From a phage: 34,554 nucleotides of DNA. The DNA is taken from NCBI GenBank assembly GCA_037431425.1, contig GCA_037431425.1_4129.4, one strand, 5' to 3'. A program made the translations under genes and the position numbers. Every line of letters begins with the position of its first letter. Within the stretch, counting starts at the first letter, position 1. The notes beneath the pieces were generated by a model that was given only the letters and a program-made list of their open reading frames with translations, ran no database searches and was not told the DNA's origin. Shown here in pieces: positions 1 to 34,554 of the stretch.

Positions 1-66
1 CTGTTACAATCAATGCAGCAAGGTTCCGGCGAAAAATTCATTCAGGATCATTGGCTGAAAGATTAA
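1..66 (+). CDS. 3' end of an upstream gene (partial, truncated by window edge)
   Basis: Frame 1 is open from window start to TAA at 64-66, ending just before the first promoter cassette; too short to assess. Confidence 0.3.
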   Translation: MLQSMQQGSGEKFIQDHWLKD

Positions 67-74
67 AAAAGTAC

Positions 75-134
75 TTGTATTGTACTTAGAATCAAGTATA
101 ATGTTTTACATAGAGAGGGGAATAGTTCCCCTCC
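75..134 (+). promoter_or_regulatory. sigma70-like promoter followed by stem-loop (PeSL-like cassette)
   Basis: -35 TTGTAT 75-80, 16-nt spacer, -10 TATAAT 97-102; hairpin GAGGGG/CCCCTC 115-133; same architecture recurs more than 10 times. Confidence 0.6.
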
Positions 135-153
135 TAACAAAAAGGAAAGTAAC

Positions 154-327
154 ATGATTCATGTAGAATTGTCAGTACTGAGAGATTTGTTTTATCGGAT
201 GGGTACTACTGGCGAATATCCGAAGGGTGATACTGCAAAACTTTTTGTATCTCTCGACTTATGGCAACGCGAACAATTAGTAATGTCGTGGCGTAAAGGT
301 AAAGCAGATCGCGAGGTGAAAGCATGA
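154..327 (+). CDS. hypothetical small protein (57 aa)
   Basis: ATG 154 after RBS AAAGGAAAG, downstream of promoter and hairpin; stop TGA 325-327; below ORF-track size cutoff, translated by hand. Confidence 0.5.
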   Translation: MIHVELSVLRDLFYRMGTTGEYPKGDTAKLFVSLDLWQREQLVMSWRKGKADREVKA

Positions 328-473
328 AAGAATTCTTATTCGAAGTAGTTTTTATTGGTGTAAGTAGTCACCAATTGATTCGCTCAAGTGGTTACAATGT
401 TTGCCAGGCATGGAATAACATTAAACAAATGTACCCGAACGCTATCACATATCGCAACCCAAAACAAGTTTAA
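324..473 (+). CDS. hypothetical small protein (49 aa)
   Basis: ATG 324 overlaps upstream stop (ATGA); open to TAA 471-473; followed by terminator repeat. Confidence 0.45.
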   Translation: MKEFLFEVVFIGVSSHQLIRSSGYNVCQAWNNIKQMYPNAITYRNPKQV

Positions 474-480
474 AAATAAT

Positions 481-600
481 TAAAAAAAGGATTGACTTCG
501 GTTAGTCCTTTTTGCTATTATATATTCATTGAGAGATAGCTCACTGACCCATAGGGTGCGGAAGTGTATCTATTATATGCTGGTGGGTGTATTATCTAGT
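481..600 (+). repeat. intergenic repeat copy 1 (terminator hairpin plus conserved downstream segment)
   Basis: Near-identical to 3421-3540 and related to 5696-5850; contains Chi octamer GCTGGTGG at 579-586. Confidence 0.7.
488..513 (+). terminator. intrinsic terminator (UUCG tetraloop hairpin plus T-tract)
   Basis: GGATTGAC-TTCG-GTTAGTCC (8-bp RNA stem with two G-U pairs) followed by TTTTTGCTATT. Confidence 0.6.
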
Positions 601-626
601 ACTGAAAACTATTTGATAAAAAGTAC

Positions 627-654
627 TTGCATTGTACTTAGAATCAAGTATAAT
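627..654 (+). promoter_or_regulatory. sigma70-like promoter
   Basis: -35 TTGCAT 627-632, 16-nt spacer, -10 TATAAT 649-654. Confidence 0.55.
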
Positions 655-660
655 GTTTTA

Positions 661-31738: not shown

Positions 31739-32307
31739 ATATTATGAATTTTACAAATTACCAATTTCATAGGCTTGAATTTCGTCATTGTGTTGCATTT
31801 GCAAAAACATTGATGTGTATCATTGACACTCTTTCAAACAAATCATTTCTAAAGGATAATGATTTATTTCTGAAAAAAAATCGTGTAACATCATCCGATA
31901 TCGGTGTCGAACTATATGTTGAGATCAGTGTTGATACGGAAGATAGTTCAAGAGTGGGGTGTATTGGTACTATTGGTACACACTGTTTTACATGGAATCC
32001 AAATACAAGTCAAGTTCGTATTGATAGAAACAATTCACGTTGGGTTAATATTAGTACTGAACCCGATTTAGAATCAGTAATGTTTCAGTTGAGTTTAATA
32101 CACGAACCTAATGAACTTCTTTATATTATTGTATTCAGTTATCTTTCACAAAATTACGATAAACCAACAGGGTTTTTCATAGAATCGGATATAGATGAAA
32201 TTATGGAAGAGATTCCTAGTTTAAAGGATATTTTAGTACAGAAAGATTTCTATGAAGACTTCAGAGATTTATATGACATGCACTTAGGGTTATTTAAGAA
32301 TGGATAA
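31735..32307 (+). CDS. family B protein
   Basis: Motif DLESVMFQLSLIHE; ATGA overlap. Confidence 0.65.
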   Translation: MNIMNFTNYQFHRLEFRHCVAFAKTLMCIIDTLSNKSFLKDNDLFLKKNRVTSSDIGVELYVEISVDTEDSSRVGCIGTIGTHCFTWNPNTSQVRIDRNNSRWVNISTEPDLESVMFQLSLIHEPNELLYIIVFSYLSQNYDKPTGFFIESDIDEIMEEIPSLKDILVQKDFYEDFRDLYDMHLGLFKNG

Positions 32308-32818
32308 AGATGGTATTCTAATTAGACTAATTAAGAGTTTGATAAAGTTCACAAATAATGATGTCGATACATACAAAGTTGGGGATATTGAATTCAAATC
32401 ATTTGGTATGTACGGTGAAGCCAAAACATATTATGCATCAATAAAATTACAAGAATCACACGAAATGTTAATATCGTTATCATACGAAGATGTTGACCCA
32501 AGATGGAGTTCCAGTATCTCGTTATCGAGAATGGTAATTCGTAATAATCACCGATACATTTCGTCAAGGAATACTCCTAACTTGTTTGATATTGTTTTGA
32601 ATGAAAATACCAACCCTATATCTAAACATGATATCGTACCTTTAACTGATGAAGTTCGTTTTCAGTTGAGCACCATTTGTGACGAAGATGTAATATCATG
32701 TATGAAAATTTACGAGAAGGTTGGGAGTGATATTCCCATGAACTATTACCTAACCATCGATGGAACGTACATCCGAGATGATGTTCTTGTGTACATTGAC
32801 AGTGTTTTTCCAAAATAA
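32300..32818 (+). CDS. family B protein
   Basis: Motif LTDEVRFQLSTICDE. Confidence 0.65.
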   Translation: MDKDGILIRLIKSLIKFTNNDVDTYKVGDIEFKSFGMYGEAKTYYASIKLQESHEMLISLSYEDVDPRWSSSISLSRMVIRNNHRYISSRNTPNLFDIVLNENTNPISKHDIVPLTDEVRFQLSTICDEDVISCMKIYEKVGSDIPMNYYLTIDGTYIRDDVLVYIDSVFPK

Positions 32819-32845
32819 AGACCCGTATGGGTCTTTTTGTGTTTT
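32819..32845 (+). terminator. intrinsic terminator
   Basis: AGACCC-gtat-GGGTCT followed by TTTTTGTGTTTT. Confidence 0.65.
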
Positions 32846-32849
32846 AGGC

Positions 32850-32878
32850 TTTACATAAGCATTCAGGTGTGTTATACT
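32850..32878 (+). promoter_or_regulatory. candidate sigma70-like promoter
   Basis: -35 TTTACA 32850-32855, 17-nt spacer, -10 TATACT 32873-32878. Confidence 0.4.
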
Positions 32879-32905
32879 TGATTTTAAATAAAATTGGAGG
32901 AATAT

Positions 32906-33469
32906 ATGAGTACTGAATTAATTAAAGAAGTCACATTACTTCTGAAACATTGTTTTAAGTACATTCCTGATACTGGTTCACGCCAGTACATTAAAGTTAA
33001 TGAGAAATATAACATTAATGTCTTAAAGAATGAAACCGTTAACAGTTATGCAAACATTGAGTTAGATGTTGAGGACAAATACACAGCATTACACATCATT
33101 TCGTCAGGCGATAGAAAACAAGATTATCGTTCTACATTTTATGATGAGAGTGTTACTGTTGGTTATAACTTTCATAAAAATAAAATTGCGTACAAGAATA
33201 CATACACACATGAAGTAATTGAAGAGTACAATTATAAAATTAAAAAAGACGAGTACGATGTACTTTTATTCAATGCGAACCTCATACATAATGCTTGCAC
33301 AGTTCGCAATCTTATGTTAGCATATGAAATTCCAAAGGTGATAGAAAGAAATGAATTGATAATCTTCAAAACTATTTTAAAATTCAGTACAGAAGAATTA
33401 GAAGAACTAGTACTGGCTCTTAAGATGTTCATCAATGAATATGTGCCTGTTAAATTAGAGGACTTATAA
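32906..33469 (+). CDS. family B-like protein (degenerate motif)
   Basis: ATG 32906 after RBS GGAGG (track start 32894 is TTG); DEYDVLLFNANLIHN at the motif position. Confidence 0.6.
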   Translation: MSTELIKEVTLLLKHCFKYIPDTGSRQYIKVNEKYNINVLKNETVNSYANIELDVEDKYTALHIISSGDRKQDYRSTFYDESVTVGYNFHKNKIAYKNTYTHEVIEEYNYKIKKDEYDVLLFNANLIHNACTVRNLMLAYEIPKVIERNELIIFKTILKFSTEELEELVLALKMFINEYVPVKLEDL

Positions 33470-34053
33470 TGCAAGCTGAACACATTCAAATTATGAATTT
33501 GATGCATGACATTGCGGAACTATCTGATAAGTACGATATTACTGTTCATGAGTCTATTGGAAATTATCGACTTAAAGTTGAAAACAAATCACCACATCGT
33601 TTTGGTTCTGTGACACTGGAGTCTTATAAAGATTACGGTTATGGAACGGCAAAAAAGGGTTTCTGGGATACTATGGCAATGTATATACGTACATCAAGAC
33701 GTAGAGAACAAATCGGTTCAATTACGCCAAATATGATATTTGTCAATGCTGTACACAGTGATATTAATCGAATTGTTGAATCTAATTTTGGTGACGTTGA
33801 GAACGATACATATTTGGAAATTCCACCAGAACTAGACCAATGTGAAGACATTCGTGAAGCATACATTTTCCAGAGATCATTACTTAACAACTTCAATGAG
33901 TTTCAGTACTTGATGCTTTGTTATGAAGCTGCAAAAGCTATTAAGACTGGTGAATTGGTAATGTATAATAATTTCATTAACTGCAAATCCGATACACTTA
34001 AAGAGTTACACACTGCCATCAAAAACATCAAGGATACATATGAACGCTTATAG
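33469..34053 (+). CDS. family B-like protein
   Basis: Motif REAYIFQRSLLNN; RBS GAGGA; shares a C-terminal LMLxYE...EL segment with 32906..33469. Confidence 0.6.
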   Translation: MQAEHIQIMNLMHDIAELSDKYDITVHESIGNYRLKVENKSPHRFGSVTLESYKDYGYGTAKKGFWDTMAMYIRTSRRREQIGSITPNMIFVNAVHSDINRIVESNFGDVENDTYLEIPPELDQCEDIREAYIFQRSLLNNFNEFQYLMLCYEAAKAIKTGELVMYNNFINCKSDTLKELHTAIKNIKDTYERL

Positions 34054-34057
34054 TTAT

Positions 34058-34554
34058 ATGACAGAACGTCATCAGATATTATATGATATCAGTACTAAAA
34101 TGTTATCAATCGTTAATAGTGGAAAAGAAATTGAAAAACAATACCTCATCCGTGATGTAGCAATTTCATCTAAATGTTGGTCCAATGAATATTACAACCA
34201 CGGTATTCTTACGATTTCTGGTGCTAGAAATATTTGTATTGTAAAAAATAAAAACAAAAGTAATGAAGAGTGTGAGATTAGAACCGATATACAAATTAAG
34301 GATGATGGAAGTTTTTCACACTACCCATTTCATATTAGTACTATTGGTGTTTTATATAATATTAAAGTACTATTCGGTGATGAAGAGTATAAGTTAAAAT
34401 ATATCGACCCAGAATCGAGTACAGTCCAAGAAGACCTGTTTCAGATGAGCACAATTATGCCCGAAGAAGTTCTTAGTACTGTTGTTTTTTGTAGTTTAAT
34501 TTATCACGAATACAAAAAGAACCAATTCGATTTCCACATGATAGGAACGTACAT
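34058..34554 (+). CDS. family B protein (3' partial, runs off window)
   Basis: ATG 34058, open to the window end with no stop; motif VQEDLFQMSTIMPEE; absent from ORF track because no stop lies inside the window. Confidence 0.55.
   Translation, partial: MTERHQILYDISTKMLSIVNSGKEIEKQYLIRDVAISSKCWSNEYYNHGILTISGARNICIVKNKNKSNEECEIRTDIQIKDDGSFSHYPFHISTIGVLYNIKVLFGDEEYKLKYIDPESSTVQEDLFQMSTIMPEEVLSTVVFCSLIYHEYKKNQFDFHMIGTY

Follow-up and report, generated by a model that had tools for sequence, protein, structure and literature searches.

Enrichment of the dispersed palindrome AGTACT in RaK2-like jumbo phages and its possible reading by a phage factor

Why should one short palindrome be many times more frequent in a phage genome than the composition of its DNA predicts? 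The question is raised by a stretch of phage DNA of 34,554 nucleotides (34.5 kb; GenBank assembly GCA_037431425.1, contig GCA_037431425.1_4129.4), referred to here as a whole as the window, for which a preliminary description made from the letters alone had remarked on the abundance of GTAC and of the hexamer AGTACT. The window has a GC content of 32.7% and about 98 small genes, every one of them on the + strand. It matches the early-gene region of the Asteriusvirus jumbo coliphages at about 90% identity (PBECO4, phAPEC6, 121Q and Sharanji), and phage ph0011 is 98% identical to it between 13.9 and 21.1 kb. It aligns to 103.4–139.9 kb of PBECO4 on the reverse strand, with 83% identity overall. 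PBECO4 was analysed as a whole genome (348 kb; NC_027364.1), and the other lineages and controls (RaK2, GAP32, Hallingskeid, T4, PA5oct and KMB37) as samples of 30–50 kb; seven lineages were sampled for the ratio of observed to expected AGTACT. The analyses show strong, clade-specific selection on double-stranded DNA for this dispersed palindrome, in genomes from which other palindromes have been purged.

GTAC occurs 320 times in the window, against 102 expected from both mononucleotide and first-order Markov models. A second-order model raises the expectation to 186.5, and by the resulting ratio of 1.72 GTAC ranks first among the 256 tetramers. AGTACT occurs 119 times, where models of order 0, 2, 3 and 4 predict 11.5, 22.8, 46.0 and 98.4 respectively. 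The excess therefore stands through order 3, with ratios well above 1, and approaches 1 only at the maximal order, because the pentamers AGTAC and GTACT are themselves enriched. The extended palindrome CAGTACTG is found 19 times, compared with 0.3 expected. The sites are dispersed over positions 1–34,554, with no strand assigned, and were characterised by counts, codon frames, synonymous shuffling and comparison of flanks. Their density is approximately 3.0 per kb in coding and 7.8 per kb in intergenic DNA (2.6 times higher) for AGTACT, and 93 of the 119 copies lie within or partly within coding sequence.

The hand counts of the preliminary description (12 GTAC in positions 1–1200 and 8 in 18,121–18,600) proved exact, where composition predicts about 3.6 and 1.4, and its claim that GTAC is over-represented in both coding and promoter sequence is confirmed, the effect being much stronger than was first thought. 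It had, however, named GTAC as the selected word, and this part requires correction. Among the NGTACN hexamers of the window, AGTACT leads (119), followed by AGTACA (64), and GGTACC and CGTACG do not occur at all. Both are also absent from PBECO4, while the RaK2 sample holds 8 GGTACC. Their absence from the window and from PBECO4 indicates that the selected unit is the palindrome AGTACT, extended to CAGTACTG, and not GTAC as such.

The window is rich in paralogous small genes and in repeated promoter cassettes, and AGT, GTA and ACT are favoured codons. The excess might then be an artefact of codon usage, of dipeptide content, of gene families or of the repeated cassettes. The gene model used for the coding tests covers 90% of the window. 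Within it, GTAC is spread over codon frames 0, 1 and 2 (95, 84 and 104 copies). Synonymous shuffling, which alters neither the protein sequences nor the overall codon usage, gave 184.9 GTAC against 289 observed (z = 10.2) and 21.4 AGTACT against 96 (z = 17.6), so that a 4.5-fold excess of the hexamer is left. For all PBECO4 genes the same procedure gave 188 AGTACT against 767 observed and 9.9 CAGTACTG against 162 (z = 51 for each). The choice of synonymous codons depends on context in the corresponding way. The earlier remarks that tyrosine tends to be TAC after a G, and valine GTA before a C, hold quantitatively in PBECO4, where 63% of tyrosines following a codon that ends in AG are TAC, compared with 27–29% after codons ending in A, T or C; Val-Leu is written GTA-CTG 138 times against 21.9 expected (6.3-fold); Ser-Thr is written AGT-ACT in 365 of 715 cases (51%) against 106 expected (15%); and Lys, Gln and Glu shift to their G-ending codons ahead of TAC. 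When sites with 40-nt flanks at least 65% identical were merged into one, 105 of 119 AGTACT and 295 of 319 GTAC sites in the window were independent, and the excess is also present in the structural and replication genes of four genera. The shuffle, the frames and the removal of duplicate flanks rule out an artefact, to which we assign a practically negligible probability. Repeated promoter cassettes and paralog families make a minor contribution, and the selection at the nucleotide level that had been suspected is supported by all three frames, by survival of the shuffle and by the context-dependent codon choice.

The enrichment is not confined to the early region. Across the 348 kb of PBECO4 there are 891 AGTACT against 119 expected (7.5-fold) and 2382 GTAC against 1098. 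All 10-kb bins are enriched, including those that contain the tail, head and replication genes, and the maximum, 14–20-fold, falls in the early region at 130–160 kb. As in the window, AGTACT is denser in intergenic than in coding DNA (4.7 versus 2.4 per kb). RaK2 (Alcyoneusvirus) and GAP32 (Mimasvirus) each have 114 AGTACT against 17 expected, and the Erwinia phage Hallingskeid has 74 against 9.9, together with 18 CAGTACTG against 0.4. By contrast, T4, which has the same host and the same GC content, shows ratios of 0.70 for AGTACT and 0.48 for GTAC; PA5oct, a distant relative of the same GC content, has 3 AGTACT against 17 expected (0.18-fold); and the unrelated coliphage KMB37 has none against 16.6. 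The absence of enrichment from these three phages rules out an effect of host or of GC content.

A weak-signal island of tandem genes of about 70 amino acids lies at 7101–12,350 on the + strand of the window, with 22 GTAC against 15.8 expected (1.4-fold) and 6 AGTACT against 1.8 (3.3-fold). The homologous stretch of PBECO4 (approximately 127,000–132,500) has no AGTACT over about 5.5 kb. The ribosome-binding regions of these genes are nearly identical to each other. The island may have expanded or been acquired recently, so that the word has not yet accumulated in it.

The sites are also preserved and regularly placed. Comparison of the window with PBECO4 shows conservation of 74% of AGTACT sites, as against 48% for all hexamers, which ranks AGTACT sixth of 265 hexamers, beside the −35 hexamer TTGACA. 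Between orthologues of PBECO4 and GAP32 (62% nucleotide identity) the figures are 26% and 12%; the numbers of sites are 42 and 52, showing that positions turn over while density is kept. Gaps between sites, analysed in 20-kb blocks, have a coefficient of variation of 0.83, below the 0.96 of simulations (z = −4.1) and the value of about 1.1 shown by other common hexamers. In the metagene profile the interior of genes is flat, with a dip over ribosome-binding sites and a peak immediately downstream of stop codons.

Turnover of positions between genera at a maintained density is also compatible with a neutral origin, in which context-dependent mutation, or a repair bias resembling very-short-patch repair, drives sequences towards AGTACT. 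Very-short-patch repair in E. coli is a precedent, since it inflates words related to CCWGG. However, none of the nine classes of one-step neighbours of AGTACT is depleted (0.54–2.4-fold; AGTATT/AATACT is at 1.12-fold), the specificity extends over 8 bp, which is beyond known mutational contexts, and the spacing is more even than random. Moreover, sites that have been lost show no dominant substitution path other than the synonymous change between GTA and GTT, and changed sites carry no mark of 5-methylcytosine deamination, so that repair of the very-short-patch kind was rejected. We regard a neutral by-product as very unlikely.

The form of the word is symmetric. In PBECO4 the base preceding AGTACT is C in 45% of cases and G, the rarest, in 8%, with the mirror preference (for G) at the following position, and CAGTACTG is present 191 times against 3.5 expected (55-fold). 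On the sense strand the two half-sites are equally common outside the ACT-free operon described below: there are 368 AGTAC not followed by T and 372 GTACT not preceded by A. At the maximal Markov order, 179 copies of CAGTACTG are expected against the 191 observed, so the halves combine almost independently. The best form of the word is thus CAGTACTG and the tolerated form WGTACW, with the two halves contributing independently and symmetrically. The balance of half-sites, the mirror-image flanks and the greater density in intergenic DNA favour a symmetric reader of double-stranded DNA over a signal in mRNA.

An action in RNA nevertheless has to be weighed, for example with AGUACU as a site for processing or decay by an endoribonuclease. 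The window has all its genes on the same strand, early genes show the greatest density of sites, and the motif includes UACU, a known cleavage sequence of MazF-type enzymes. In addition, a feature within the window shows that selection at the level of RNA or of single strands may operate in these phages. This is an operon of about 20 small genes, here called Region A (13,961–21,000, + strand), which lies downstream of the promoter at 13,923–13,951 and in which ACT is nearly absent. Its sense strand has 22 ACT against about 151 expected, with depletion in all contexts, both in frame (7 versus 43) and out of frame (13 versus 84), and its threonine codons include 7 ACT against 52 ACA. In the homologous 7.2–8.5 kb of PBECO4, Ecwhy_1, CMSTMSU and the Salmonella phage SD-15_S21 there is no ACT at all against 168–193 expected, whereas there are 186–219 AGT, and ACA, ACG and ACC are plentiful. 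The gap in PBECO4 is 16.7 times the expected maximum gap, whereas every other trinucleotide reaches at most 2.7 times. The ACT-free coordinates are 116,682–124,300 in PBECO4, where the sense strand is minus, and 3527–11,364, 2965–11,424 and 3551–10,761 in the relatives' sequences labelled L012, L013 and L014. The ACT-free stretch begins 0.3–0.6 kb downstream of a sigma-70-type promoter and runs about 50 nt into the gene block that follows.

The operon is informative about the word itself. Region A has 74 GTAC, present as AGTACA/GTACA (57) rather than as GTACT (7), and in the near-identical interval 14,501–21,000 they fall in all three frames. In the operon GTAC has a density of about 10 per kb, in all frames and with a shuffle z of 4.7, and where ACT is wholly absent it occurs as AGTACA but never as GTACT. 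Pressure for (A)GTAC thus persists where its final T is forbidden, as shown by the continued enrichment of GTAC where ACT is banned. The operon is the only stretch with a strand skew of half-sites. In the lineage of the window, 7 of the 22 ACT in Region A lie inside AGTACT, and this ph0011-like lineage has relaxed the ban on ACT. The ten largest proteins encoded by the operon were scanned against Pfam and PHROGs, and none has a known function.

The closest analogy for the ACT-free operon would be the ACA-less, MazF-immune mRNAs, in which a group of genes likewise lacks one trinucleotide on the sense strand, whatever the frame. Those mRNAs are engineered, however, whereas the operon is natural, extends over 7–8 kb and is specific for ACU, with ACA, ACG and ACC plentiful. 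We know of no ACU-specific nuclease. Enterobacteria do have MazF-family enzymes specific for UACU, UACG or ACA. An explanation of the operon in terms of single-stranded DNA may also hold. Elsewhere in PBECO4, at 154,000–156,000, the sense strand has more ACT than AGT (75 versus 29 in 2 kb), because the motif AAAGAATACTACA is repeated near gene starts in a stretch with few annotated genes.

For AGTACT itself, the RNA explanation is opposed by the balanced half-sites and mirror-symmetric flanks, by a density that peaks between genes, promoter spacers ahead of the start sites included, and by the enrichment of the GTAC core inside the very operon that bans ACU. We consider it very improbable.

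The excess stands out all the more against the treatment of other palindromes in the same genomes. GCGC does not occur in PBECO4, where 294 copies are expected (179 by synonymous shuffle), nor in the window (13.5–25 expected, depending on the model), nor in the samples of RaK2, GAP32 and Hallingskeid, whereas its counts are normal in T4 and PA5oct. GATC is under-represented, at 0.45–0.56 of expectation (0.56 in PBECO4). Hexamer palindromes rich in G and C are avoided on a large scale: of the 64 hexamer palindromes, 23 are absent from PBECO4 and 4 more occur only once or twice. Of these 27 forbidden hexamers, the window has only CCATGG (at 23,448 and 23,918) and ACCGGT (at 8909), against 58.6 expected in total. 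GTGCAC (2.1–2.4-fold), CACGTG, ACGCGT and CCTAGG are spared, and AGTACT is the lone outlier, at about 9-fold, the next highest hexamer palindrome reaching 2.1-fold. Avoidance of restriction sites is known from phage genomes, and AGTACT and GTAC, as the sites of ScaI and RsaI, belong to the same class of sequence; the sign is opposite for AGTACT, which at 7–10-fold over-representation cannot be an avoided target of this type. The unrelated coliphage KMB37 lacks almost the same list of palindromes as PBECO4, and AGTACT as well, which implies that phages of these hosts normally eliminate AGTACT and that the RaK2-like clade does the opposite. We infer that AGTACT must be immune to ScaI-type restriction in this clade. 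The absolute loss of GCGC across genera suggests a constant selection, such as a phage-encoded GCGC-specific nuclease directed against host DNA, rather than occasional restriction by hosts.

A need for immunity, together with the parallel loss of AGTACT from KMB37, leads to the proposal that AGTACT/GTAC is the target of a phage DNA methyltransferase, for instance with GTm6AC made by a Dam-family enzyme, and that the methyl mark is itself the function. The mark could serve, as GATC does for Dam, in protection, as a mark of self, in strand discrimination or as a packaging signal. PBECO4 does encode a small Dam-family N6-adenine methyltransferase (PF05869) and a C5-cytosine methyltransferase of 286 amino acids. 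The latter is present in every enriched lineage, with 64% identity in RaK2 and K64-1, about 75% in GAP32 and CBB and 77–78% in the Erwinia phages (64–100% over the clade), and the next homologues, at 51%, are from phi92-like phages, which lack AGTACT. In ph0011, TH47, JNE01, UE-S1 and A4 the match to the C5 enzyme is limited to residues 78–286, and on this basis the lineage of the window may have a divided or shortened gene.

The C5 enzyme is a poor candidate for AGTACT. The protein encoded at 221,340–222,200 of PBECO4 (minus strand) can be aligned over its full length with the catalytic domain of eukaryotic DNMT3A/B/C (E ~1e-23) and matches DNMT3 better than it matches M.HaeIII or M.HhaI; among solved structures it is closest to the catalytic domains of the CpG-specific DNMT3 enzymes. 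The restriction enzymes ClaI and NruI are sensitive to CpG methylation. The published work on RaK2 found methylated CpG by bisulfite sequencing, and RaK2 DNA is reportedly cut only by methylation-tolerant enzymes, which could be taken in favour of a methyl mark; DNA of the Asteriusvirus phage fEgEco12, however, showed the expected digestion pattern with each of the ten enzymes used, ClaI and NruI included. Since the enzyme is DNMT3-like and RaK2 has methylated CpG, which AGTACT does not contain, it is probably not an AGTACT enzyme, and it was rejected as such. No signature of 5-methylcytosine deamination was seen at the C of AGTACT among changed sites. The Dam-family enzyme has about 52 best-matching records at 60% identity or more, of which the two listed are Asteriusvirus-type coliphages, and the gene was not traced beyond Asteriusvirus. 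Above all, immunity accounts for tolerance of the word but not for an excess of 7–55-fold. We consider it unlikely that methylation is itself the function. A likeness to the system of GATC, Dam, SeqA and MutH remains, in that both involve a dispersed short palindrome with a possible methyl mark and these phages encode a Dam-family enzyme; GATC differs in being under-represented here, and to our knowledge it is not many-fold enriched across the E. coli genome.

Where the word meets early promoters, its placement resembles that of an operator. The preliminary description had found AGTACT in nearly every promoter cassette; it is present in 12 of the 20 intergenic sigma-70-like sites of the window, so that many early promoters are indeed overlapped. 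The position relative to the −35 and −10 elements is mostly one of two. At 7 of the 20 sites, AGTACT begins 7–8 nt upstream of the −10 hexamer, at roughly −19 to −14, as in the TTGACA-N16-TATAAT promoter at 1085–1112 on the + strand (TTGACAAAGTATCTTAGTACTGTATAAT; AGTACT at 1100–1105). The same architecture is repeated at 1281–1308, 3857–3884 and 5854–5882, and a similar one is at 745–773. At four promoters the word is fused to the −35 element as TTGACAGTACT. One of these (2493–2521, + strand) has a second AGTACT over the −10 element (AGTACTAT) and is duplicated at 2770–2798, and the single fused forms are at 5412–5439 and 13,923–13,951. Two promoters carry a second copy just upstream of the −35 element: that at 1702–1738 (+ strand) lies between one AGTACT upstream of −35 and another at −19 to −14 (AGTACTATTGACA...AGTACTTTATAAT), and the second promoter of this kind is at 5083–5118. 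The cassette at 598–654 (+ strand; AGTACTGAAAACTATTT..AAAAAGTACTTGCATTGTACTTAGAATCAAGTATAAT) does contain the inverted repeat AAGTAC/GTACTT around the −35 element that had been pointed out, and further cassette copies with AGTACT are at 70, 3525/3548, 4431, 4767 and 6272. The cassette quoted earlier as AAAAAGTACTTGCATTGTACTT...TATAAT has six occurrences.

The association with promoters is therefore real but covers only about a fifth of the sites. With most copies non-intergenic and the metagene profile flat, a promoter element or operator alone is ruled out; the word is a feature of whole genomes, evenly dispersed throughout the clade in structural and replication genes as well as in cassettes. 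Sites fall on the −35 element or spacer of many early promoters and reach their greatest density in the early region; a factor that reads them therefore probably acts on early transcription.

Two further observations concern promoters. A recurrent element, AAAGGGATTGACTCCGGTCAGTCCCTTTGCTATTAT, at 490–540, 3425–3480 and 5705–5760, has a G+C-rich hairpin (GGGA...TCCC) that overlaps a promoter-like TTGACT-N17-TATTAT, and does not contain AGTACT; we interpret it as a probable terminator with a promoter directly behind it or merged into it. In PBECO4, positions 195,592–196,557 on the minus strand encode a sigma-70-family protein of 321 amino acids with regions 2, 3 and 4, in addition to a gp55-like late sigma factor, and this protein could define a class of middle promoters.

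Even dispersal and strand symmetry are also what might be expected of a site used in replication. AGTACT could be the preferred site of a T4-type primase, which would read 5′-GTA-3′ on the template and make pppAC primers on both strands, or of a T4-type topoisomerase II, for which GTAC would supply a 4-nt stagger flanked symmetrically. Genes for a gp61-like primase, a gp41-like helicase and gp39/gp52-like topoisomerase are present. The primases of T4 and T7 recognise GTT and GTC, and cleavage by type II topoisomerases leaves a symmetric four-base stagger. However, the trinucleotide GTA is already frequent, which leaves no reason for enrichment of words of 6–8 nt, and T4 and PA5oct share these enzyme families without sharing the enrichment. 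The placement in promoter cores is left unexplained, and we know of no phage that enriches primase or topoisomerase sites. We give this explanation only a small chance.

The word could alternatively be borrowed from the host. The published 12-bp site of the E. coli nucleoid-occlusion protein SlmA, GTGAGTACTCAC, is a palindromic dimer site with AGTACT at its centre, and phage copies might recruit SlmA and so block host cell division. The published site requires G, T and a purine before AGTACT and (C/T)AC after it. These flanks are not only missing here but disfavoured: the full site, GTRAGYRCTYAC, does not occur in PBECO4 or in the window, half-matches to the flanks number 16 against 50 expected, and G, as noted above, is the rarest base at −1. 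SlmA sites are thus ruled out, and this function has next to no chance of being correct.

Our proposal is that AGTACT is a dispersed recognition word, under selection throughout the RaK2-like jumbo phages (Asteriusvirus, Alcyoneusvirus, Mimasvirus and their Erwinia relatives) and read by a symmetric phage factor, a reading that we judge to have slightly less than an even chance of being right. The factor would be phage-encoded and two-fold symmetric, most likely a sequence-specific DNA-binding protein, possibly accompanied by site-specific methylation, which would also shield the site from restriction of the ScaI/RsaI type. What is selected would be the number and even coverage of sites rather than any single site, and the factor would mark or organise the phage DNA as a whole, in a genome without blanket base modification. 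The same factor would probably shut off or modulate early transcription. Both agents named in the preliminary description, a DNA-binding regulator and a DNA modification, are thus still plausible. We favour a binding protein over methylation itself, a replication-enzyme site, an RNA signal or a mutational bias.

Several observations weigh against this proposal. No cognate protein or modification for AGTACT was found among the candidates examined. The sole clade-conserved methyltransferase looks CpG-specific, no RaK2 or GAP32 ortholog of the Dam-family enzyme was seen among the matches listed, and Mom-like modification was rejected, since RaK2 has a Mom-like gene of which neither PBECO4 nor the window contains a homologue. 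A contiguous palindrome of 8 bp is more typical of restriction and modification enzymes and of ribbon-helix-helix proteins than of helix-turn-helix repressors. The almost independent contribution of the two halves of CAGTACTG (191 versus 179) leaves room for a strand-blind reader of the half-site CAGTAC. No helical phasing of AGTACT sites was detected, only the 3-nt coding periodicity, and biased mutation or repair could also raise the conservation between close relatives. We note in addition that no restriction-enzyme families are found among the annotated nucleases of PBECO4. A search of the literature for GTAC, AGTACT or CAGTACTG in phages, and for Asteriusvirus promoters, gave nothing relevant, and neither a ScaI or RsaI digest nor a methylome of these phages was found in the literature searched.

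Dispersed recognition words of this general kind are familiar from cellular chromosomes. Chi (RecBCD), KOPS (FtsK) and DNA uptake sequences are also over-represented, are accommodated in all frames by synonymous choice, and are conserved in density. They are asymmetric and oriented with respect to strand or replication, whereas AGTACT is a palindrome without strand bias and occurs in a phage. The analogy with T4 is of another kind: hydroxymethylcytosine may offer a parallel in telling phage from host DNA, though the distinguishing feature here would be a word in the sequence and not a modified base. Along this line we advance, tentatively and as a doubtful possibility, the idea that CAGTACTG is a sequence-encoded mark of self, with about 900 copies in the genome, by which a phage protein recognises, coats, protects or organises the phage DNA and silences early promoters, host DNA being unmarked. 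A phage nuclease directed at GCGC may work together with such a mark. If true, it would be a word-based counterpart of the hydroxymethylcytosine of T4.

The excess of AGTACT appears not to have been described in the literature searched. A palindrome of 6–8 bp enriched 7–55-fold indicates very strongly, and across the clade, that selection acts on DNA itself in several genera of 350-kb phages, and it predicts a sequence-specific reader, whether a binding protein, a modification enzyme or both, with a genome-wide role. An oligonucleotide carrying CAGTACTG provides a simple handle with which to fish out this reader, with CAGTTCTG as the comparison duplex. The absence of GCGC and the ACT-free operon point to further layers of sequence-level adaptation in the same phages. 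These jumbo phages are candidates for therapy, and synonymous recoding of their genomes would destroy hundreds of selected sites, which bears on both their engineering and their annotation.

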